The notes under the pieces were generated by a model. That model ran no database searches and was not told the origin of the DNA. It worked only from the letters and a program-made list of their open reading frames with translations. The position numbers were made by a program, and so were the translations under genes. Positions 26,657-43,662 of a stretch of DNA of 64,000 nt are shown piece after piece. The stretch comes from Longimicrobiales bacterium (GTDB lineage Bacteria; Gemmatimonadota; Gemmatimonadetes; Longimicrobiales; Gaopeijiaceae). The first letter of the stretch is position 1; each line of letters opens with the position of its first letter. The DNA is taken from contig CBDCKN010000003.1 of assembly GCA_965218295.1 (NCBI GenBank), positions 224,001-288,000 of the forward strand, read 5' to 3'.

Positions 26657-27730
26657 GAGGTTGGGTCAATAGGTGTGTAAACGTATTAGGCGGCGTTCTT
26701 CCGCTGTTGGTGTGAGACGGGCTTTCCGTCTTCGAACTTTCTTCCTTCAAATACGTCCTTGAGGAGGTGAGGAGCGTCGAGCCTTCGGAACCGCTTCTCA
26801 GCCACCAAGAGCAACTTCCAGATTAGCGCCGTAGCGCTCTCGACCCGCTTGAACCGCTTCGCTGCTGTCGTCCTGAGCCGTACCGCGGCGAACGGGCTCT
26901 CGACCACGTTCGTCGTGCGTAGATGCTTCCAGTGGTCCTCGGGGAAGTCGTAGAACGCTACCATCCGCTCCCAGTCGTCCTCGAGTACGTCCACTGCTTT
27001 CGGATACCACGGCCTATAGCGTCGGGCGAACACCTCGCGGGCCTTCAGGGCCTCGGCCCGGCTCGGTGCGTAGACCACGGCCCGGAGAAGATCCTTCGCC
27101 TCGCCCTGCTCCCGCTGAGGTAGTCGGTCCAGCACGTTCCTCATCTTGTGGTTCCAGCACCGTTGCTCACCCGCCTCAGGCCATACCTGCCGTACTGCGC
27201 CCCAGATCGCAGCGTTACCGTCCGCCATCAGAAGCCGGGGCGCCTCGATGCCGCGTGCCTTCAGGTCCCGCAACACCTCGGACCAGGACTCGACCGACTC
27301 TCGGTAGCCCGCTCTCAGGGCCAACACCTCTTTCGTCCCGTCTCGCATGGCACCCAGCACCACCAGCAGCGCCGCTTTGTCCCGCTCCAGCCCTGCCTTC
27401 ACATAGATCCCGTCCGCCCACACGTAGACGACCTCACGACCCTCCAGGCGACGCTGGCTCCATTCCTCGAACTCCGCCGTCCATCCCGCCCGCAGCCGCC
27501 GAATCGAAGACTTCGACAGCGGTGCCCCCTCGCCCAGCAGGCCCCGCATCGCCAACTCGAAGTCTCCCTCCGCCAGTCCGTGCAGATACAGCTCCGGAAG
27601 CAGAGCGCCCAGCTCCTTCGTCCGCCTCGCGAACAACGGCAGCACGCGGCTCTCGAACCGCTCCTCAAGGCCTCGAACTCGAGGGCGTCGGAGTGTGATC
27701 GTGCCCGAGCTCATCGCCAGCCGCCTCGGC
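26657..27730 (-). mobile_element. IS256-family element, 5'-truncated second copy
   Basis: Matches 17352-18426 in reverse; left end and first ~65 codons missing. Confidence 0.9.
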
Positions 27731-27990
27731 AGAGTACAGATGATGTCATTCACGGCAAGAAATCGTCTAAGTCAACCAGGACTAGCGGTGACAACCGTAA
27801 CCTTTGGTTAGACAATGGTTTATCGTTCATCACAGTGTTCCGTGGATCACTTCAGATATGCAAATATGAGCGGGAATTCGTCGGACCGAATGGGATGGCT
27901 GCGGACGAAGTTCTGGGCGAGGAAGGAAGAGAGACAAGTCGAAACCGGGCGATCTCCCGCCCCCCCAGGAGCGTTTCTTCGGCACAACCT

Positions 27991-31136
<3,146 letters not shown>

Positions 31137-31140
<4 letters not shown>

Positions 31141-32765
31141 GTCACGGACTCCAATGCCATCTCGGCATCGCCTACGCGGATCTCACCCGAAATGAGCTTG
31201 GGGAGCAGCGTGTCGCGGAGGGCGGCGAGAGTAGCAGCTTCGGACCGGTTCTTCAGGATCCGCGCCAACGTACCACCGATCACTTCGCCAAACGTTGTGA
31301 AGGCTCTCGGCGACCCAGTCAAAACCTCACGTGCCTTCAACGCCTTCGGTGGGACGCGCTGATGGCTGTTGGAAGTTCCAGTCACCAAGGACCTGAGCAG
31401 GGCGCGGAAGCGCTGATCCCCAAACAGCGTAAAGAGGAGATTCCTGTTCGCAGGCGATCGCGGCGTGAACACGAGAAACTCCGTTGAGCATATCTGCGGT
31501 CTTGCCGTGGAGTCGGCTGGCACCCAGACACGTGCGATTCTTGGATTAAGCTTGGATAAGAGGACCGCATCCTTCAGTACAACAGTCTTGTTGCTCCTGA
31601 TGGCCGCACCTAGTTCGATAGCAGGGCGTTGGCCTGCGTCATATGCCGGGATGCTGAAGTGCTCATACTCCAATCCGGAGAAACGCGAAGGCGAGGTGGT
31701 TTTCGTGTGGTGATTGGCTAGCTGATCCAAGCGGAAGACCTCCCACCCCTCCGGTATCTTGCCCATCTCGGAGTTCACCAGTCGTTCGGGGAACAGTTCG
31801 GCGATTTCTTGCGGCAATCCCGTATGACGGCCTTCCATCTTCGCCCGGACGGGATCGAAATCGACGAACCAAGACTTGAACAACGCCCGCGCCATCGCCT
31901 CCAGCGTCTCGTTCATCCGACGGTTCAGCTCGATCTTGTCGTCCAGCGTGCCGAGGATGTGGGCGATGGCGAGTTGTTCAGAGAGAGGTGGGAGTGGTAT
32001 GTCTACGCTGTGCACCAAAGATGGACTGACGTTGGGCTGCGCCGATCCGTACCCAAGGTTCTCGATCTTCTTGCGCACTCCTTTGTATCGCAAGGAATAA
32101 AATAGAAATCGATTATCAATCCGGTTGGGATCGCGAATGGAGAAACGCCCAACTCGCTGGTTTAGTACCGCCGGAAGATCGCGATGCCGAACCATGGCGA
32201 TATCGCCTATGTACCCGGTCATGGCGATGAGAATATCGTTGTGCTGAAGCTCAAACTCGCCAGCGTCTGAGGCAACCTGTGGCGACACAAATGAGCAGCC
32301 GTCCATGATAAGGCTACCACTCTTCACGTTCTGTATTTTGACAACTGGGATGCCAGTATCAACCCAGTCGCTGCTCTTAAACGCATATCCTGACCGTACG
32401 GACGCCACATCGCCAAGACGCACAACATCAAACTGATCCACGATGTCCGGCTCCTCTACTGCCAGCAGCACCACATGCTCACGCTCGATCTTCTTTCGGA
32501 ATTGGTCGGGTACGGCATCCCAGACGAACAGGTCTACCCGGAACGGCAGGTTGCTTTCCTCGAATGCTTCCTCAAGGTCGGAAACCCGGCTGGCTTGCTC
32601 CGGCGTTGCGAAAACCACCATATCCAGATCAGACTGCGGGCGAGAGGTCCATTTGGCGCGGGATCCATAGACCCACACGGTCGTGTTCGGCAGATGCCGC
32701 GCAAGCAGTGCCAGAACGGTTTGGCGCTGTTTGGCGGTAATATCGATCACCCCGTCCATCCCCAT
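31137..32765 (-). CDS. hsdS: Type I specificity subunit with N-terminal MNT nucleotidyltransferase domain
   Basis: [16 protein letters not shown] (GSx10DxD) followed by two TRDs, [18 protein letters not shown] and [14 protein letters not shown]. Confidence 0.9.
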
Positions 32766-33172
32766 GCTTCCCCGCTCATCGTCTGATAGAGTCCGATGGC
32801 GTCATCGATGAAGTCCGGTATTATCTCCAGGCAGTCTTGCGCCTTTGTGCCGTCGTAGTCATGAGAAGTACCGATGCGTGCGTCGACGTAGAGCCACCAC
32901 TGCTCCAGCGGTGTAGAGAACAGATCGTTCTCGTAGGCAAGCCTGAAAATAGGCTTAGGACTGTTGGGAGGATCTGCGATGCCCAGTTCTTCGATGAGAT
33001 ATCGCTTTAGTACCTTCCACAAGCAGTCATAGCAGGTCTCAAAACGCTGGATCACCGACTCAGCGATGCCTTCCTGGTTCAGGACAGGCAGAGAGGTATC
33101 CAGGTTCCGGTAGTTGGCATGCTGTTCCTCAAGACGTGCAAGGGACATTTGAAACTTTTCATATTCGATCAT
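32747..33172 (-). CDS. HEPN-domain protein (HI0074-like nucleotidyltransferase substrate-binding protein/toxin)
   Basis: IQRFE..WK, SPK..FR and RIGTSHDY (Rx4HxY) motifs. Confidence 0.85.
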   Translation of the reverse strand: MIEYEKFQMSLARLEEQHANYRNLDTSLPVLNQEGIAESVIQRFETCYDCLWKVLKRYLIEELGIADPPNSPKPIFRLAYENDLFSTPLEQWWLYVDARIGTSHDYDGTKAQDCLEIIPDFIDDAIGLYQTMSGEAWGWTG

Positions 33173-33198
33173 GGCTAATGCCTCTGCTCCTTCACGCT

Positions 33199-34749
33199 TC
33201 ATTCATCGCTAGCGAATCCAAAGATCGTAAGATTGGCTTCGATGGCGTCGTCCAGCTTCGCGCCTTTGGCCTGTTGCTCGCGAAACTCGGCGACCAGTCG
33301 TTTCATCTTGTCCTCGAACGGCTCACCGTCGTCCTCTTGGGGCTCCACGCCGACATAGCGGCCAGGCGTCAGCACATGGCCGTGCCTACTCACCTCCTCC
33401 AGTGCCGTGCTCTTGCAAAAGCCGGGAATGTCGGCGTAGCCGTCGTCCTCCTCTCCCCTGCGCCAAGCATGGTAGGTGTCGGCGATGCGGGTAATGTCTT
33501 TGTCAGTAAGCTCGCGGTGCGTCCGGTCCACCATCCGGCCGAGCTTCCTCGCGTCGATGAACAGGATCTCGCCCTGGCGCTTGCGTCGGCGCGCCAGGAA
33601 CCACAGGCAGGCGGGAATCTGAGTCGAGTAGAAGAGCTGGCCCGGAAGGGCCACCATGCAGTCCACTAGCTCCGCCTCGATCAGGTTCTTCCGGATCTCT
33701 CCCTCACCCGACTGATTCGACGACATCGACCCGTTGGCGAGCACGAACCCCGCAACGCCCTTGGGCGCGAGGTGGTGGACCATGTGCTGGACCCATGCGA
33801 AGTTGGCGTTGCCCTTCGGCGGGATGCCGTAGCGCCAGCGCTTGTCCTCGACCAGCCTGTCGCCTCCCCAGTCCGAGACGTTAAACGGGGGATTGGCGAG
33901 GATGAAATCGGCCTTCAGGTCCGGATGGCGGTCGTTATAGAAGCTGTCGCCGTGGGCGATCTGTCCCCCAATGCCTCGTATGGCCAAGTTCATCTTCGCG
34001 AGCCGCCACGTCGTGTAATTCGACTCCTGCCCGTAGATCGAGATGTCGCCGCGCGCCTTGCCGCCGTTGCCGTTTCCGCTGGAGTGGGCGCGAATGAACT
34101 CGATCGACTGCACGAACATGCCCGAGGACCCGCAGCAGGGATCGTAGACCCGCCCCCGGTAGGGCTCCAGCATCTCGACGAGCAGCTTGACGACGCAACG
34201 CGGGGTATAGAACTCACCGCCCCTCTTGCCCTCGGCACTCGCGAACTGTGAGAGGAAGTACTCGTAGACGCGGCCGAGCACGTCTCGGGAGCGGGCTTCG
34301 GCGTCCCCGACGCGGATGTTGCCGATCATGTCGATCAACTGGCCGAGCCGCTGCTTGTCCAGGGCGGGCCGCGCGTAGTCCTTGGGCAGCACCTCCTTCA
34401 GCGCCGGGTTGTCGCGCTCGATCGCGGCCATGGCCCGATCGACGGTCTGTCCAATGGTCGACTGCCTCGCCTGGGCCTTCAGGTGTGGCCAGCGGGCTTC
34501 CCGCGGCACCCAGAAGATGTTTTCGGCGATGTACTCGTCGCGGTCCTCTGCGGCCTCGTCCCCCCACTTTGCCAACACCGCCTCGTGGCGCTCCTCGAAG
34601 GCGTCCGAGATGTACTTCAGAAAGATGAGCCCGAGCACGACATGCTTGTACTCGGCGGCATCCATCGAGCCGCGTAGCGCATCGGCCATCGCCCACAGCT
34701 CGGCCTCGTAGCCGGTCGTGGCTCCGCTGTCGTTTTGCGTGCCTGCCAT
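33199..34749 (-). CDS. hsdM: Type I R-M methyltransferase subunit
   Basis: [16 protein letters not shown] and NPPF motifs. Confidence 0.95.
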
Positions 34750-34982
34750 TGCTGTCGCGGTCCTCATTCTTCGTCGCTGTGGAGGAACTTGGGGAGCTGG
34801 GTCGTAAGCAAAGATACGACATGGCATCTGTCCTGCCATCGCAGGGATCGCCGACGCAGGGTGTCCCATGCCCGGCGGACCTGCGCTGCGCAGGGATCGA
34901 CTAGTCCGGAAACCGGCGGAGAACACCGTTGAATGATAGGAGATTGGGTGCCGGGCACGATCTCGGCCGATCCCGGGAACCA

Positions 34983-36503
34983 TCACCGGCTCGGGCCATG
35001 ATCGCGCTCTGGGCCGCGCCGGCGCATCATCTCCAGCGCGCGCGCAACGTCTCGGCGAGCTTCTTGTAGTATTCGGCCAAGCGTGTCATCCGTCCGTCGA
35101 GCCGCTCGATTTGCCTCTGCAAGGTTTCGCTCTGCACGGCCTGCCGCTCGACACGCCGCCTCAAGGCTTCGACCTGCTCTGAGTGCCGCCGCTGTTCCGT
35201 CTCGCACTGCGCGGACAACCTCTCCAAGGCCGCCGTCAACTGCCGTTCCAACTCGGTCATACAGCCTCCTCACTCTCTCGACAGCTTCACGTAGGGCCGA
35301 TCGCGCACGGTCCAGGGCGGATAGGCCAGCGTGCCGGCCGGCAGCACCACGAACCGCTCCCCCTCGATCTCCCGGAGCGCGATCCCCCAAGTGTCCTTCT
35401 CGAACTGAGCCAGCGTCTGCCGGGCCTCCTCGATGTCCCGGTCGAGTTCGGCGACCGTCTCGATCCGGACTTGGATGCGCGTCCACAACCAGTGCATCGT
35501 CGCCCAGCTTCCGCCGCAGATACCGAGCCAGAGGCTCAGGCCGACCACCAGGGGCCGGAGCCATGCCCTCAGCAACAGCGCGCGCATCCGCCCAGTCGCC
35601 GCCTCCGTATCGCGCTCGATGGTACGCAGCGCGTTCCTCGCGACGCGCCGCGAGTTCTCGCCAAGCCGATCGAGCTCGTCCGCGGTCAATCCCTCGATCT
35701 CCCGGCGTTCCCTCTCCAGCCGCTTCCGCAGCCGGTCGGTCAAGCCGCTCACGCTTGAAGTCATGGGCGTACAGCTCTCCTTTCAGACGCCACCGGTCCC
35801 CGGTCGCGGGGTACAGCGCCGTCAGGTAGTCCTTTCCTTGGCGCGGCACTTCGAGGCCCGCCTCCTGCAAGGCGGTGACGACATCGGCCCGGTTCCGCAC
35901 CGTGCCGTGCTCGACACGCTGGAGCAGGTAGTCGTGGATCAGGTCGCGGGGGGAGGATTCGAGCCCGAGCCCGGCCCGCAGCCGCGCCGCCTCGATGTAG
36001 GCGCGGTGTCCGGGTTGCTGCACCCTGGCCCGCGCCGGATCGTCGGGCCGGCTCCAGCCGTGTTCGGCGTTGACGGCGTCGCGCAGCGGACCGAAGGTCT
36101 TCTCCCAGCCGGGCGGCGCGATGTTGAGGCTCCGGCCGGTCTCCAGGTCGCAGCGCGCGGCCAGGACATGCACGTGAGCGCCGCCGCCGCGCTCGCGATG
36201 CAACACGGCCGCCCAGGCGTAGCGGTCGGGCTCCAGCCTCGCCCAGGCTGTCCGCTCGAACTCATCCAGAACCTCGCCGATCTGGTCGTCGGTCGGAGCG
36301 TCTTCCGGCGCCCAGGCGATTACGCCCGATGTGTACTTGTGCTCGAACGCCAGCGCGTCCGCCACGGCGGCCACCTGGTGGGGATTTCCCCGGAGGACCT
36401 CGACGCCTTCGCGCGGCTTCCCGGCCGCGTCCCGCCCACCGAGAAGGTAGTCGGCCGCCGCACGGGCCGAGCCGGTCCCGCGGGCCAGGAACTTAATGAG
36501 CAT
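34983..36503 (-). CDS. ColE1 MbeA-like relaxase
   Basis: [27 protein letters not shown]-terminus; [12 protein letters not shown] motif III. Confidence 0.88.
35027..35260 (-). CDS. MbeD-like mobilization protein nested within the relaxase gene
   Basis: [15 protein letters not shown] coiled coil; GGAGG RBS; alternative frame. Confidence 0.75.
35270..35764 (-). CDS. MbeB-like mobilization protein nested within the relaxase gene
   Basis: Coiled coil plus TM segment ([14 protein letters not shown]); AAAGGAG RBS; same position as ColE1 mbeB. Confidence 0.72.
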   Translation of the reverse strand: MTSSVSGLTDRLRKRLERERREIEGLTADELDRLGENSRRVARNALRTIERDTEAATGRMRALLLRAWLRPLVVGLSLWLGICGGSWATMHWLWTRIQVRIETVAELDRDIEEARQTLAQFEKDTWGIALREIEGERFVVLPAGTLAYPPWTVRDRPYVKLSRE

Positions 36504-36831
36504 CGCGATCCGGGAACCCGACGGGGGCCAGCGCCGCGAGCGCCCGCTCGATGGCGATGAGGTGGCCGGTCACCTCGACGGCCTCGACCGCCCCCTTGTG
36601 GGTATTGGCCCAGCGGGCGATCTGGTTGAGGTTGTTGCCGATGCGCGCCAGCTCGCGGGTGCGCTCGCGCTCCACCTCGGCGTGCGGCACGGTCCAGGTG
36701 CGCACCCGGCCAACCGACCGGCGCACCAGATCCGACAGCGTCAAGCCTGCGGAACGCGCCTTGGCGTGCCACTCGGCACGCTCCGCTTCGCTGGCGCGGA
36801 TCTTCACCCACACGGCGCGTCCAGCGTTCAT
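36493..36831 (-). CDS. mobC: MobC/MbeC relaxosome accessory protein
   Basis: RHH N-terminus; LARIGNNLNQIAR motif. Confidence 0.9.
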   Translation of the reverse strand: MNAGRAVWVKIRASEAERAEWHAKARSAGLTLSDLVRRSVGRVRTWTVPHAEVERERTRELARIGNNLNQIARWANTHKGAVEAVEVTGHLIAIERALAALAPVGFPDRDAH

Positions 36832-36849
36832 GACGTGCCGTTGCCGTTC

Positions 36850-36932
36850 GGGGGGTCCAGAGGGGGCACAGCCCCCCGCCAGCCCCTGCCGGGGACCCGC
36901 GAAGCGTGGGCCCCAAAGGGTATGCTGGCTTA
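36850..36932 (+). other. oriT (ColE1-like nic region), copy 1
   Basis: Upstream of mobC; GGGTATGCTGGCTTA resembles the ColE1 nic region GTGTATACTGGCTTA. Confidence 0.7.
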
Positions 36933-37135
36933 CGCGCCTTAGACGCGGCCGACAAGCTCGTGCGCCGCAGCTGCGGGCGCACCGAAGCTCGACGGAAATC
37001 GGGCGGCCCCCCGGTCCTCAACACGCCGACCGTCGAGGGCGAGCCGTTGCAGCTGTTTGGCGCGGAACGCCCCACTCGCCGCCTCCGCCCGCCCGCGCCG
37101 TGGCTCTCGGCCCCGGCATCCTCGCGCGGTTCCGC

Positions 37136-37366
37136 CTAAGCGCCGTCATCCCGGCTCTCCTCGATGCGCTCGCGCATCCATTCGTCCACCTCCCCCTCGA
37201 TCCAGCCCACGGCGCGCGATCCCAGCGAGACCGGGCGGGGGAAGCACCCCTGGTCCAGCCGCACATAGATCGTGCTCCGCGCCAGACCCGTGCGGGCCTT
37301 CACCTCCGGCAGCCGCAGGAACCGGGTCGGCGGGTTCGTTCTCTGTTCCATCGGTTGTTCACTCAT
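37136..37366 (-). CDS. alpA: AlpA-family regulator/excisionase
   Basis: FLRLPEVKARTGLARSTIY..FPRPVSLGSRAVGW motif. Confidence 0.92.
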   Translation of the reverse strand: MSEQPMEQRTNPPTRFLRLPEVKARTGLARSTIYVRLDQGCFPRPVSLGSRAVGWIEGEVDEWMRERIEESRDDGA

Positions 37367-37643
37367 CGCTCTGATCCTCCTCGTTCTCTTCGTGCGTGAC
37401 GTAGGCGTCCGGTGCCGATGGCGACGGGGGCGGCGCCCGCGGGCCACCCGAGCCCCCGTCGTAGTCGTCGATGAACGCCAGAACCCGGTCCGCCGTCCTC
37501 AGCGACATGGAGCGTCCGCCCTCGATCTGGCGCATCAGATTCGGATCGCCCAACGCCTTCATGCCGAACGTCGTCGGCCTCAGGCCCGTGCGCCCGAGGA
37601 AGGCGCTCACGCGCGAATTGAACTGCCGCTCCAGCGTCTCCAT
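37359..37643 (-). CDS. Cro-like HTH protein
   Basis: PTTFGMKALGDPNLMRQIEGGRS..LRTADRV; upstream palindrome TAGGAGATTTCCTA next to TTGACG. Confidence 0.65.
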   Translation of the reverse strand: METLERQFNSRVSAFLGRTGLRPTTFGMKALGDPNLMRQIEGGRSMSLRTADRVLAFIDDYDGGSGGPRAPPPSPSAPDAYVTHEENEEDQSDE

Positions 37644-38071
37644 GCCCGAAACGTTGAGGAGCCGTCTTGGTGGACGTCAACCCTTAGGAAATCTCCTAAA
37701 GGCTTGTAGCGGCTAGAGATAGCCAGTACGGTACGCGAGCTGTTGGACACCGCCGCCAGTGGCATGGCGGACACCCCCTCCGCAGCGCTCGCCAGAGGTT
37801 CCCGTCAAGGGTCTTGGAGATCGGTCGGGAGGCCGTCTGGTTGGGCGATAGTGAGGGAGGGAGACTGAGTAAGAACGGCCTCGTCGTTCTCCGCGAAGCG
37901 CTCGGGCAGGCTCCCCGTACTGAGCCGAGCCACGGAGACTACCTTCAGCGCATGGTCCAACGCGGCGATCCAATGATGGATCCCTTTGCCGAGAGCGGTG
38001 TGGGAGTGGCAAGGTCCATCCAATGCAGGCAATTCGGTCGCGTCATCGCTCCGACCGACCGGCCGGCTCCA

Positions 38072-39268
38072 TTAGGCCGCTCCGGTCGGCACCCACGGTG
38101 GCACTGCGCTACTGATGTATTCGCACCACGCCTGAAGGACTTCGGCGCGGCGCTCCAGCAGGTCGGATCGCTGATACGCCTGAACAACCCGGCTTCTCGG
38201 GACGTGGGCGAGGCAGGCTTCCGCGACCTCCGCCGGGACGCCCGATTCGGCCATCCACGACCGCGCGCTCGACCGGAACCCGTGCAGCGTCGAGTCCACC
38301 CCGGCACCCCGAAGCACGCGCCCCGGCGCGTTCACGGCCAGCGGCCCGCCCGACCTCGACGGAAACACCAGCGCCGACTCACCGGACAGCGCGCGCGCCC
38401 GTTCGAGCACATCGAGCGCGCCCGTGCTCAACGGCACGGTGAACTCCCGGCCCGCCTTCATCCTCAACGCCGGAATCGTCCACCGCGCCGACTCCAGGTC
38501 GATCTCATCCCAGCGCGCCCCGCGCGCCTCTCCGCCCCGAACGGCGGTCAGCACGATCAGTTCCACACACAACGCAGCCGCCGAGGGCGCATCCCCCAAC
38601 CGCCGGATCGCCCGGAGCGCCGTCCGGACCTCCTTGTGCGGAAGCGCGCGATAGTGCTCCGGCCCGGTGCCGTTCACCCTCGGCAGCGCCGCCACCGCCC
38701 GGTCCACCGGATTGTCCGGGCGGTAGTTCCGGCCGATGCACCAGCGAAAGACGGCGGAGATCCGGTGCCGGGCCTTCCGCCCGGCGGCGGGCTTCGAGTT
38801 CCAGATTGGTGTGAGGCAGCGGAGTACGTCCGCGCTCGTGATCCGGTCCGCAGGCTTGTCCAGCAGCGGGGCGGCATGCAGACGAAATGTCGACTCCCAC
38901 TGCTCGGGAAGCGGGCTCCCAGCCTTCCACGCGTCGCGGTGAAGCTCGATGGTCCTTTCGGCGGCATCGGCGAACGTCGGGACGCCGCGTCCTCCGCGCG
39001 GGTCTTGGCCCAAGCGGACGCCCCGGCTGTTGTCCAGCGCCTTCTGCCGGGCCTCGGCGAGCGTCACCTCGGGATACGGCCCGAGCCCGATCGAGGTGAG
39101 CCGTCCGTCGATCCTGACGCGTTGCCGCCACGTCTTCGTGATCCGGCCGCTAGCCGTCCGGTGGACCCGGAGACTCAGCCCCCGCCCGCCGCGTCCGTCG
39201 CCGTAGACTCCGGGTCGGCCGACCGTCCGAACGAACGCGGCGGTGAGTGTCCTCGGTCGCTTGGTCAT
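38072..39268 (-). CDS. P4-like tyrosine integrase with arm-binding domain
   Basis: Arm domain (GLGPYPEVTLAEAR); catalytic R, K, HGFR, H and Y all present. Confidence 0.92.
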   Translation of the reverse strand: MTKRPRTLTAAFVRTVGRPGVYGDGRGGRGLSLRVHRTASGRITKTWRQRVRIDGRLTSIGLGPYPEVTLAEARQKALDNSRGVRLGQDPRGGRGVPTFADAAERTIELHRDAWKAGSPLPEQWESTFRLHAAPLLDKPADRITSADVLRCLTPIWNSKPAAGRKARHRISAVFRWCIGRNYRPDNPVDRAVAALPRVNGTGPEHYRALPHKEVRTALRAIRRLGDAPSAAALCVELIVLTAVRGGEARGARWDEIDLESARWTIPALRMKAGREFTVPLSTGALDVLERARALSGESALVFPSRSGGPLAVNAPGRVLRGAGVDSTLHGFRSSARSWMAESGVPAEVAEACLAHVPRSRVVQAYQRSDLLERRAEVLQAWCEYISSAVPPWVPTGAA

Positions 39269-40123
39269 GGCTTCCTTCTTTGGTGGTGTATCACTTTGTG
39301 CCTCACTACATAAAGAAGAATACACCGGATGCCAATGGAATACAAGAGGACAGTTCTACCGGGCGTCACGCTGAAACCATTGCAATACAGGATGTTACGG
39401 GACTTCTAGTGGACTACTGTGGATCGCCTCGGATCATGACTGGAGAGTTCAACCAGGACTGCACGATCTGCCGCACTTGCCGTCCTACCATACCTGATGC
39501 TGCCGTGCTTAAAGGGCGAGAAAACGGCATCAAATGGCGGGACACGAAATGGCAACAGCCTGGGCTATCAGGCAATCGGGGCGAGGGCGGACCGGTCGGT
39601 GGCGCACTGGACAGGCTGCCCTATAGCGACTTGTAGTAGTCACGAATCTTGACGGCCATCAGAAGTCTGCGAGTAAGGGTTACCTCAGGGGGTTAAAGTG
39701 CCCGGAAAGGAGTGGTGGTCTCTGTTCTGGCTTTCGGGCCTACCGCGTCGCCGCGCCCGTGCAGCTCTCCTCGTTCACGCGCAGGTACTCCAGGACGAAG
39801 GTGTCCACGGACTCTGACAAGCCTTGCATGGTGGAGGCAGCGCGTTCCGCGCCGCCGCTGTGCGTCCCGATGAAGCTATCCGTCCGCACATCGGGGATGC
39901 CGACGGGCCAAGGCCGCCGCCGTGATCACCGACGCACATCAAGAATCCTGGCTATCTCGCACGGCATCTCAGAAAGGGCGCCATGCTGGACAGCGATCCC
40001 GGCCTAGTGGTAGACTGACGATCCCCTCAAGCCAACGTGAGGAACCCCTCCTACGGCAGCGAATGGGACCTACCCACAACGTTCACACACGTCTTGCCCC
40101 TAAACCCTTAGGAGGGCGGAACC

Positions 40124-41890
40124 ATGGCATTTCAGATTCCGATCACGATCAAGGAGGCGATCGACCACATTCACAACAACCGTTACCTGCTTCCGGCCAT
40201 TCAACGGGAGTTCGTTTGGCAGCCGTCTCAGATCGAACGGCTCTTCGACAGCCTCATGCGCGGCTATCCGATCGGATCGTTCCTGTTCTGGCGAGTCGAT
40301 CCCGAAACTGCGAAGGACTACAGGTTCTACAAGTTCATCACCGATTACGATCAACAGGAACCCCACAACCAACCCCATGGGGCGCCTGCGGCCGTGCCTG
40401 GCCTGAAGGCGGTGCTCGACGGGCAGCAACGCCTCACGGCGCTGAATGTCGGGCTGTGCGGGTCCGGTAAGTGGAAGCTTCCCCGCCTATGGTGGAAGAA
40501 CCGGTGCGCTTGGCCGGAACGACAGCTCCACCTCAATCTCCTCGCGCCTCCGACGGAGGACGAAGAGGAACTCTCGTACAAGTTCCGCCTCCTCCCGCCC
40601 AAACCTGACCCGCAGGGCTGCAAACACTGGTCCCTGCACGCCCAACGCCGGAACGACCACGAATATTGGTACCGCGTGGGAGATATCCTCGGTTTCGAGG
40701 ATGCCGCGGACCTGATCGACGTCGTCTTCGACCTTGGGCTCGTGGATACAAAGAAGCCTCTGAGAATGCTCACCAGGCTCCACCACGTCGTTCACAGCGA
40801 TGGCATCGTCTCGGCCTACGAAGAGGCAGACCAGGACCCCGAAAAGGTCCTCAACATCTTCGTTCGCACCAACAGCGGCGGCACGTCGCTGTCCTACTCG
40901 GACATGCTCCTCAGCATGGTAGTGGCCCAGTGGGAAGACGCGCGCAAGGAGATTCACGAGCTCGTTGACGAAATCAGGGGCATCGGCAGGGGCTTCTCTT
41001 TCAATCACGACTTCGTGCTTAAGGCTTGCCTGATGCTCGGCGACAGCGACAGCATCCGATTCAAGGTCGTGAACTTCAGAAAGTCGAAGATCGGCACCCT
41101 GCAGCACCAATGGCATCATATCAGGAGAGCCATCACAGAAACGGTGGAGCTCGCATCCTCGTTCGGCTACTCTGGACAAAGTCTGGCATCGGCAAACGCC
41201 CTGTTGCCGATCGCCTACCATCTCCACCGCCGGCAGCAATCGTTGGGTGCCGAGGACCTCAAGACGATTCGCGACTGGCTGATTCGCTCGCTGCTGAAGC
41301 GCGGGATATGGAGCAGCGGCGCTGACAGCCTGCTGATGGCAATCCGCAAGGCAATGCAGCGGAGTTCCTCCCACAACGGTTTTCCGGCTCGCGCGATCGA
41401 GGAGGAGATGCGTACGCGTGGCAAGGGGCTGACTTTCGACGATGAGGAACTCCAAGACCTGGCCGACGCCGCGTACGATGGAAGGGCCTACAGCCTCCTG
41501 TTTCTCCTGTACGATTTCGTCGACGTAGCCACGAACCGCTTCCACATCGACCATGTCTTCCCGCGCGCGCTGATGACCCCGGCGCGCCTGAAGAAGGCCG
41601 GCGTCCACGAGGAAAAGATCCCCGAGTATCTGGATCGGGTGAACCGCCTGGCCAACCTCCAACTCCTCGAGGGAAAGATTAACATGATCAAGGGCGCCAA
41701 GCTGCCTGCCGACTGGCTGCGCGAGCAGTACTCCGAGGAAACAAGGCTGAATCACTGCCACCTGCACGATCTGGGCGACGTTCCAACCGAAGTCACGGGT
41801 TTCCTGGACTTCTACGAGACACGCCGAACCCGTATCCTGGACAAGCTGCGCCGCCTACTCGTTTCCGACAGCACGGAGAACCCGGACTAG
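40124..41890 (+). CDS. DUF262 + HNH-like (GmrSD-family) nuclease
   Basis: PAIQREFVW, DGQQR and FVRTNSGG motifs; C-terminal DHVFP..LANL. Confidence 0.82.
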   Translation: MAFQIPITIKEAIDHIHNNRYLLPAIQREFVWQPSQIERLFDSLMRGYPIGSFLFWRVDPETAKDYRFYKFITDYDQQEPHNQPHGAPAAVPGLKAVLDGQQRLTALNVGLCGSGKWKLPRLWWKNRCAWPERQLHLNLLAPPTEDEEELSYKFRLLPPKPDPQGCKHWSLHAQRRNDHEYWYRVGDILGFEDAADLIDVVFDLGLVDTKKPLRMLTRLHHVVHSDGIVSAYEEADQDPEKVLNIFVRTNSGGTSLSYSDMLLSMVVAQWEDARKEIHELVDEIRGIGRGFSFNHDFVLKACLMLGDSDSIRFKVVNFRKSKIGTLQHQWHHIRRAITETVELASSFGYSGQSLASANALLPIAYHLHRRQQSLGAEDLKTIRDWLIRSLLKRGIWSSGADSLLMAIRKAMQRSSSHNGFPARAIEEEMRTRGKGLTFDDEELQDLADAAYDGRAYSLLFLLYDFVDVATNRFHIDHVFPRALMTPARLKKAGVHEEKIPEYLDRVNRLANLQLLEGKINMIKGAKLPADWLREQYSEETRLNHCHLHDLGDVPTEVTGFLDFYETRRTRILDKLRRLLVSDSTENPD

Positions 41891-42747: not shown

Positions 42748-43662
42748 CTATAGCAGTCCCCAAATCCACTTGATCATGAATCCAAGAATCAAACAGGCAA
42801 TCAAATAGACCGTGCCCCAAAAGTAACTGGGACGGTCATGAAAAAGGCTCCTGAAGACATAGTGCAAGAGGCCAACTATGGCTTTAGTCTGGGCTTCGTC
42901 GAAGCCAGCTTCCTTGAGGTGGCGGTAGTAGGGGTGGTGGTAGGGTTCGTCTGGATCTTCAAACACGACGTCAACTATGGCTTCGGCCTGAGCTTCTTTG
43001 AAGCCGGCGGTATTGAGGATACGTCGGGCTTCCTGGACTCTGTCCTTTCTGTCCCGGAACTGGTGGAGGCCGGACGTCGGCCAATCAGTCTTGTGTCCGT
43101 AGGTGCTCAGGCACAAGGCATCAACTATGGCTTCGGCCTGGGCTTTCTTGAAGCCGTAATTCCTAAGGTAGCTTCTGGCGTTCATACCTTCAAATCCGGG
43201 ATCGTTTTCTTCAGATTGGAGCCCGTGAACGAACAAGGCATCAACTATGGCTTCGGCATCGTCCTGGAAGAAACTTTCACTGAGGGTGCGGCTGTGGATT
43301 TTGTGCCGGTCTTCGGTCAAGACGTCAACTAAGGATTCGGCCTGGGCTTCGTCGAAGCCGGCGTTCTTGAGGAGATATGTGTTGGCTCTATAGGCTTCGT
43401 CGGGATCTTCAAACATGACGTCAACTATGGCTTCGACCTTGATCTTGGCGAAGGAGGCGGCGGTGAGTGTACGGCGAGCTTTCCGGGCTTTCGTGGCCTT
43501 GGACCATTGGTCGTCACGGATGATGGAAGTCAAGGTGACGTCAACTATAGTTTTGGCCTTGGCCTCGGTGAAGCCGGCGGCCTTTAGTGTGCGGCGTATC
43601 TTTGAGCGACCATAAAAATACACGGTTTCCCCTTTCGTTCTGGCAATCAATCCTCCCGCCAC
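42748..43662 (-). CDS. Protein with 7 tandem DUF1640/CCDC90-head-like repeats and a C-terminal TM anchor
   Basis: Repeats LxxAGFxEAQAEAIVD; hydrophobic C-terminus; start uncertain. Confidence 0.65.
   Translation of the reverse strand: MAGGLIARTKGETVYFYGRSKIRRTLKAAGFTEAKAKTIVDVTLTSIIRDDQWSKATKARKARRTLTAASFAKIKVEAIVDVMFEDPDEAYRANTYLLKNAGFDEAQAESLVDVLTEDRHKIHSRTLSESFFQDDAEAIVDALFVHGLQSEENDPGFEGMNARSYLRNYGFKKAQAEAIVDALCLSTYGHKTDWPTSGLHQFRDRKDRVQEARRILNTAGFKEAQAEAIVDVVFEDPDEPYHHPYYRHLKEAGFDEAQTKAIVGLLHYVFRSLFHDRPSYFWGTVYLIACLILGFMIKWIWGLL

Follow-up and report, generated by a model that had tools for sequence, protein, structure and literature searches.

In the window, the whole 64,000-nucleotide stretch analysed here (contig CBDCKN010000003.1 of assembly GCA_965218295.1, from a Longimicrobiales bacterium), a type I restriction-modification (R-M) operon contains the gene of a candidate HEPN toxin and, behind it, a gene in which an MNT domain, its candidate antitoxin, is fused to the N-terminus of the specificity subunit HsdS. 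An earlier note on this DNA had given the order as hsdM - HEPN - MNT::hsdS - hsdR, tightly spaced or overlapping, and indeed four open reading frames (ORFs) follow one another on the minus strand with overlapping junctions (Table 1): ATGA joins hsdM and the HEPN gene, GTGA joins hsdS and hsdR, and the HEPN stop codon falls within the region where the fusion gene starts. The hsdM frame stays open further upstream, to 34986, and for the fusion a GTG at 32750 is probably another usable start. A promoter scan gave results at chance level.

By its sequence, the type I system is intact in the catalytic motifs of HsdM, of an HsdS with a pair of target recognition domains (TRDs) and of HsdR. HsdM scored above the Pfam cut-offs for N6_Mtase and HsdM_N and has the motifs DPCCGSSG and NPPF; HsdR scored above those for HSDR_N and T1RH-like_C and has PD..ELK, GSGKS and DEAH.

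Table 1. Operon, fusion protein and surrounding island, with positions in the window
Feature	Position	Strand	Length and matches
hsdM, type I methyltransferase subunit	33199..34749	-	516 amino acids (aa); PF02384 E=8.5e-107, PF12161
HEPN toxin candidate, HI0074/NTase_sub_bind family	32747..33202	-	PF08780 E=1.2e-20
MNT::HsdS fusion	31137..32765	-	542 aa; Polbeta/NTP_transf_2 + Methylase_S
MNT domain, N-terminus of fusion	32457..32765	-	PF18765, PF01909; 1NO5 E=2e-15; fold match 1NO5, 8XEO
Short linker, predicted disordered	32439..32456	-	predicted local distance difference test (pLDDT) <50 at model residues 99-104
HsdS part	31137..32438	-	PADLOC Specificity_I 114-540; model and fold search
HsdS subdivisions	TRD1 ~32438-32001; central conserved helices ~32000-31731; TRD2 ~31730-31296; then C-terminal helix	-	
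hsdR, HindI-like type I restriction subunit	27991..31140	-	1049 aa; PF11867, PF04313, PF18766; TIGR00348 above cut-off
Integrative mobilisable island with operon, ends approximate	27750..39540	.	11.8 kb; shared ends with contig C9 element
Mobilisation module	34983..36831	-	PF21983, PF05713, PF03432
MobC/NikA; relaxase; two small overlapping mob-like ORFs	36493-36831; 34983-36503; 	-	
AlpA-like regulator and tyrosine integrase	37136-37447; 38072-39325	-	PF05930; PF00589, PF22022, PF13356

The HEPN protein and the MNT::HsdS fusion

The HEPN gene encodes 151 aa from position 33202 or 141 aa from an ATG at 33172, and the latter start fits the family alignment. The product is a lone domain of 141-151 aa, without an ABC-type NTPase sensor. 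It scored 74 bits against PF08780 (cut-off 31.8) and 50.9 bits against the NCBIfam HI0074 model TIGR01987, below that model's cut-off of 55.8; no PADLOC model matched it. Searches of phage records and of PHROGs gave no match. The Rx4HxY motif read by the earlier note is present as RIGTSHDY at residues 109-116 (R109-x4-H114-x-Y116, at 32878-32855). A putative metal site, Q52/E55, lies at 33049/33040: the protein aligns to 1JOG and to the Legionella HEPN 8XDJ, with its IQRFE in register with the IQAFE of 8XDJ, which holds Q44 and E47.

The MNT domain likewise keeps the GSx10DxD motif that had been reported for it, at residues 34-48 (G34-S35-x10-D46-x-D48), with Asp78 as the third aspartate, and the Pfam Polbeta/NTP_transf_2 match spans residues 22-101. 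It scored 26 bits against PF01909 (cut-off 21) and 37.8 bits against the NCBIfam MntA model NF047752, below the cut-off of 60. That the domain is in frame with a complete two-TRD HsdS was borne out. Pfam scores the first TRD alone, but the PADLOC HsdS model covers residues 114-540; the AlphaFold model (pLDDT 89) has two well-folded parts with a disordered six-residue linker between them; and a fold search with that model aligned 429-457 columns to the HsdS structures 1YF2/7VRU and 100 columns, at 1.6 A, to HI0073 (1NO5). Single-sequence fold prediction was uninformative (pLDDT 37). Since one PADLOC model for HsdS, PDLC03138, extends over the MNT part as well, the protein is already in databases, unremarked. 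HsdS tolerates N-terminal fusion, since an HsdM-HsdS fusion of EcoKI is active according to passages of PMC3510504.

An assembly error or the chance loss of a stop codon was ruled out as the origin of the frame: single contigs spanned the MNT-TRD1 junction in 4/4 sequencing runs, with no indel listed (four studies, one of which may be the source of the assembly), and many distinct fused loci exist. The linker contains GAGGAG..GTG, a candidate internal start for free HsdS. A general internal restart was rejected as a family trait, however, because such a site was present in only 6/68 fusions versus 3.5% of background windows, and start codons were present in 24/68 versus 40%. Since most fusions have no internal start, HsdS would be made only joined to MNT. 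The linker varies from ~1 to 40 aa across fusions and is unconserved.

Distribution, origin and natural mutants of the fused loci

The fusion is not peculiar to this genome. A search with the MNT part returned 1033 matches among proteins of 298-949 aa; 118 of the best 120 contain HsdS and 119 have GSx10DxD, with TRDs that are mostly unrelated. From the HEPN side, the best 80 of 170 relatives in GTDB, from metagenome-assembled genomes of many phyla, comprised 46 loci with a near-full fusion, 10 with a broken fusion, 22 with MNT alone and 2 with none. Starting from HsdS, 80 of the best 120 matches by central conserved region have an N-terminal MNT (27 of clade A, 13 of clade B and 40 of clade C, see below) and 40 do not; no N-terminal family other than MNT was found among these 120 nearest HsdS. 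The culturable Zymomonas mobilis ATCC 10988 carries hsdM - HI0074 - MNT::hsdS - hsdR on pZMOB01, and its MNT retrieved 132 further proteins, of which all 120 listed carry HsdS (known as proteins); the names of some point to Xanthomonas, Pseudomonas, Ferrovum, Nitrosomonas and Methylobacillus. Acetobacter plasmids have the same order as the window, but with MNT and hsdS as separate overlapping genes.

All DNA fetched, the window included, held 103 distinct fused loci from many phyla. The hsdM gene is upstream in 91 of them and abuts HEPN in 38, and hsdR abuts in 14/61; thus, the layout usually includes further cargo, and the window has it in its minimal version. Such hsd slots hold Fic, Schlafen-ATPase, HicB, TIR, Abi_C, AbiEii-like ATPases, SIR2-HerA and KwaB.

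Several variants were noticed among these loci. In some MNT::HsdS proteins (P0007, P0039, L196:3954-6242), a nuclease domain of the DUF559 or GIY-YIG type is inserted in the HsdS central conserved region. There are also double-MNT fusions (12 of the best 120 MNT-search proteins, P0005-P0009, and also L195) and loci in which HEPN/MNT pairs lie in tandem ahead of hsdS (L031, L043, L088, L200, L206). The MNT::HsdS frame of L022:6369-12041 runs on for 1890 aa, in which Pfam matched nothing further. One genome, G1037 (L204, L207, L208, L212, L213, L215), has seven MNT matches and several hsdM-(HEPN)-MNT::hsdS loci, two of whose fused forms are without HEPN and have a decayed MNT motif. Furthermore, a conserved orphan ORF of ~81 aa lies directly upstream of HEPN in 37/80 GTDB loci (for example, L049:5730-5972 and L016:5731-5973); it does not occur in the window, and HEPN follows it in 42/45 matches overall. 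The ORF had no Pfam or PHROG match, and its Atlas neighbours were solely hypothetical clusters, often phage. It is possibly a third component or regulator of the toxin-antitoxin (TA) pair.

Three MNT clades can be told apart, with 35-43% identity to the MNT of the window and with fused members in each. HsdM proteins 78-88% identical to that of the window are paired with HEPN proteins of just 22-32% identity. TRD1 is shared across MNT clades: among 280 TRD1s taken from 355 proteins and clustered at 70% identity, 15/42 multi-member clusters were joined to at least two MNT clades. The layout is also found in an EcoR124-like system (L193) and on a third backbone (L194), with HsdM 34% and 26% identical. 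A quickly built tree of 147 MNTs, based on 97 columns and with many forks left open, omits duplicates of other loci and has one row for Acetobacter, mostly unfused; it needs 25 changes between fused and unfused states, of which at least 6 are forced by supported branches. Where hsdS follows MNT in this set, 83 are fused and 5 separate; in one unfused form, L083, the MNT stop overlaps the hsdS start (ATGA). Three TA clades on three type I backbones indicate that the fusion arose repeatedly; a single origin was not supported by these clades and backbones, as far as a quick tree can tell.

HEPN is upstream in 99/103 fused loci, and GSx10DxD is kept in all 99. Because 80 loci were found with a HEPN query, the fair measure of HEPN co-occurrence is 42/46 loci found by MNT. 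In contrast, 3/4 fusions without HEPN have lost the second aspartate (two of these come from the same genome). The reciprocal was seen where the cognate MNT is broken by frameshift, deletion, truncation or stop: in a post hoc test, the pattern having been noticed first, Q-x-x-E was changed in 5/6 such loci versus 8/74 others (Fisher p=3e-4). Within IQRFE, Q is changed to R and/or E to K (L013, L044, L060, L062, L077), whereas the other 63 conserved HEPN columns of the six loci had 16 changes in 378 cells and the R, H and Y of Rx4HxY had none. These repeated substitutions at Q-x-x-E look like mutations that have inactivated the toxin in nature. A different proposal, that MNT is spared while HsdS decays, was dropped, as MNT and HsdS are broken at roughly the ratio expected from their lengths.

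The ratio of nonsynonymous to synonymous substitution rates in 26 close fused pairs was 0.23 for HEPN, 0.22 for MNT and 0.20 for hsdM; for stand-alone HEPN/MNT, it was 0.15/0.26 in seven pairs. These values indicate that HEPN and MNT are under purifying selection like hsdM. Since the motifs decay reciprocally and selection is purifying, we infer for HEPN the role of a toxic RNase and for the fused MNT that of its antitoxin, in keeping with the earlier note's reading of a HEPN toxin with an MNT antitoxin and with natural mutants that behave as expected of a toxic HEPN restrained by MNT. The earlier note's placement of the RNase site at Rx4H was upheld only in part. The motif is present, and its R, H and Y are kept in 63, 64 and 63 of 64 fused clade-A loci, but the closest studied relative shifts the catalytic role to the equivalent of Q52/E55: in passages of PMC11586414, Q44/E47 of the Legionella HEPN is the Mg-binding catalytic site, and R98A and H103A had little effect. 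Because the natural mutants change Q and E and the Legionella HEPN uses Q44/E47, it looks as though Q-x-x-E rather than Rx4H is the catalytic site. The tyrosine of RX4HXY is the AMP acceptor in HepT/MntA (passages of PMC7641770).

The island around the operon

An integrative mobilisable element carries the operon as cargo that can be exchanged. The island backbone is 97% identical over 35021-39540 and 82% identical over 27750-27956 to a second element on contig C9 (G000:C9:145849-159347, L161), which has different, non-R-M cargo; further related mob/oriT-like copies lie on C3, C12, C13, C14 and C15. An imperfect inverted repeat (27795-27821/39374-39400) was found near the ends, and the window has no tRNA and no clear att direct repeat. 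A search of 40 relatives did not find HEPN, and HEPN and TRD1 have a GC content of 52% versus 65% for the genome.

An IS256-family element with dozens of near-identical copies in the genome lies at the left end of the island (26657-27730). Just outside the island is a GmrSD-family gene (40124-41887, plus strand; PADLOC HEC-05, BrxU-like, E=3e-204), and further on (42748-43662, minus strand) a 304-aa protein of ~33-aa repeats with weak CCDC90-like matches is encoded.

Known relatives and the possible role of the tethered antitoxin

As passages of PMC7641770 define it, class I HepT/MntA comprises adjacent HEPN (PF01934 or PF08780) and MNT (PF01909) genes with RX4HXY and GSX10DXD. By sequence, the pair in the window conforms to this definition save for the free small antitoxin: it shares the PF08780/PF01909 neighbours and both motifs with Shewanella SO_3166/SO_3165, where MNT is a free protein of 80-150 aa, whereas here it is the N-terminus of HsdS, with the toxin first, inside an hsd operon. 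The HEPN-MNT pair of Legionella pneumophila (8XDJ, 8XEO, 8XEH; PMC11586414) and HI0074/HI0073 of H. influenzae (1JOG, 1NO5) belong to the same subfamily by sequence and fold; Q-x-x-E, the acceptor tyrosine and a short MNT without the long C-terminal helix are shared. There, the pair is described as two small proteins, with no R-M link in the passages of PMC11586414.

The analogy to PrrC drawn in the earlier note proved loose. PrrC/EcoprrI likewise has a HEPN nuclease gene inside a type I hsd operon, but it has an ABC-ATPase; here no such sensor is present, and HEPN has its own enzymatic antitoxin and is widespread outside R-M operons. Indeed, 50/147 MNTs stand alone, and in 400 gammaproteobacterial genomes only 9/99 match rows were in frames of at least 500 aa. 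Moreover, in PrrC the toxin is sequestered, whereas here the antitoxin is covalently tethered to R-M. Embedded defence genes described in parts of Payne et al. (bioRxiv 10.1101/2024.01.29.577857) are likewise cargo of hsdM-hsdS and hsdS-hsdR slots, swapped between backbones, but are not fused to a core subunit; MNT and "nucleotidyl" are absent from the main text. The fused MNT-HEPN FhepTA (passages of PMC13000451) also has an N-terminal MNT, a short linker and interconverting fused and split forms, but its MNT is joined to its own toxin, whereas here MNT is joined to an R-M subunit and HEPN is a separate ORF. A description of MNT::HsdS was not found in the literature searched, with figures, most supplements and subscription papers outside the search, nor in passages of PMC12839542, PMC8432527, PMC2701414, PMC2794190, PMC7641770, PMC13000451, PMC11586414, PMC12707154, PMC3510504, PMC3874165, PMC3710099 and the Payne et al. 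and Xylella preprints. Passages of the ZM4 plasmid R-M paper mention neither ATCC 10988 nor "nucleotidyl", and those of the Xylella paper mention no such domain. Class I HEPN/MNT and cargo in type I operons are known, and the fusion of MNT to HsdS is apparently new.

The reading that we favour, with confidence evenly balanced, is that a type VII-like TA keeps the R-M island stable, and that its antitoxin, although tied to HsdS, works independently. HEPN would probably be a Mg-dependent RNase toxin acting via Q52/E55, silenced by the fused MNT through adenylylation of Tyr116, and the fused HsdS would probably still assemble with HsdM and HsdR, the two halves of the fusion being independent. A toxin-first HEPN/MNT pair may enter the hsdM-hsdS slot such that the MNT stop overlaps the hsdS start, after which a small change would fuse both. 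The fusion might be favoured because it would keep hsdS translated once cargo parts it from hsdM and because it would weld the antitoxin coding sequence to the specificity gene; loss of the block would leave new or long-lived toxin unopposed, so that the TA would stabilise the island. MNT might serve as a constant 5' arm behind which TRD1 is exchanged. Type I systems are not known to be strongly addictive in their own right, and HsdS in free form dissolves poorly, though neither statement turned up in the passages searched. The suggestion of an addiction module in the earlier note fits this reading.

The same note had also proposed a guard triggered by loss of R-M, which has so far found no support. 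Of 23 loci with intact MNT in which hsdS or hsdM is broken or unseen, 18 keep Q-x-x-E in HEPN (a second hsdM in trans is possible). Since HEPN stays intact without hsdS or hsdM, MNT would work without the complex. The effect of losing an R-M part on HEPN is unlike that of losing MNT (p=0.01). Stand-alone pairs and the swapping of TA clades on one HsdM backbone also speak against such a trigger, and HEPN similarity follows MNT (rho 0.44) more than HsdM (rho 0.23; n=41).

Several observations weigh against the favoured reading. Translational coupling needs no fusion, as the separate overlapping MNT and hsdS of the Acetobacter plasmids attest, and the excess of 83 fused over 5 separate genes, with no other N-terminal domain in 120 HsdS, could mean that tethering has a specific benefit. 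Also, Q-x-x-E is mutated in 5/23 R-M-damaged loci versus 2/40, a weak trend toward HEPN mutation (p=0.09; p=0.32 once three loci are set aside in which hsdM could be outside the flank). The broken-MNT comparison covers only six loci, and one of these, L048, is an exception in which HEPN is intact although its MNT has a stop. HEPN toxicity and its control by adenylylation are themselves inferred.

If the tether itself is what matters, the antitoxin could ride on M2S/R2M2S complexes, and binding or dismantling of these by Ocr-, ArdA- or Stp-like proteins would disable MNT, leave HEPN unmodified and abort the infection. We consider this unlikely, although it deserves weight: the fusion is repeated and MNT-specific (80 of the 120 nearest HsdS, with MNT of three clades and no other domain), it recurs in the EcoR124-like system and on the third backbone, the internal start is confined to 6/68 fusions, and a tether requires no conserved interface. 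HEPN backups in R-M operons have been proposed generally (passages of PMC3710099, PMC12707154 and PMC3874165), with PrrC as precedent. However, 18/23 loci with damaged R-M keep an intact HEPN, HEPN similarity tracks MNT better than HsdM, the linker is variable and flexible, and stand-alone pairs are abundant, whereas PrrC is almost exclusively embedded according to parts of bioRxiv 10.1101/2024.01.29.577857. Moreover, covalent AMPylation would not be reversed by sequestering the enzyme, and Ocr, in the passages found, binds the DNA groove and not obviously the HsdS N-terminus. That a guard was built by gene fusion, evolved many times and wired into as much as two thirds of a single large HsdS family is an equally doubtful proposition.

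Rather improbable is a repeated but tolerated accident, in which the toxin-first order puts the MNT stop on the hsdS start, small deletions fuse the genes without selection and recombination spreads the result. The overlapping ATGA of L083, the frequent remaking of junctions (15/42 TRD1 clusters with at least two MNT clades), the 25 state changes of the quick tree (at least 6 forced) and the persistence of fusions after decay or loss of HEPN (L147-L150, L210, L212) would all be expected, but the ratio of 83 fused to 5 separate, the absence of other fused cargo in 120 HsdS and the convergence in three backbones would not. We give little credence to the view that HEPN/MNT is a phage defence of its own, set off by host shut-off or a drop in ATP and merely co-housed with R-M. 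The same slots do hold TIR, Abi_C, SIR2-HerA, KwaB, AbiEii-like ATPases, Schlafen-ATPases, Fic and HicB, and genes embedded in type I operons are often defences (parts of bioRxiv 10.1101/2024.01.29.577857), but no PADLOC model matches HEPN and the fusion is left unexplained. That MNT is a new catalytic part of R-M, nucleotidylating DNA ends, HsdM or HsdR, is very improbable, since despite the covalent link to the DNA-binding subunit and the motif kept in HEPN-less L210, the motif decays in 3/4 HEPN-less fusions and 40 of the 120 nearest HsdS are without MNT.

Whichever role the tether has, the fusion physically joins a TA to a core R-M subunit, a link that is common, apparently undescribed and hidden under the label "restriction endonuclease subunit S". 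The fused, split and stand-alone forms and the culturable copy in Z. mobilis ATCC 10988 make two open questions directly testable: what purpose class I HEPN/MNT systems serve and whether an R-M guard can do without a sensor dedicated to the task. Across this HEPN subfamily, the natural mutants suggest Q-x-x-E to be the functional RNase site. In such loci, deletion of hsdS to make a strain transformable would also remove the antitoxin.

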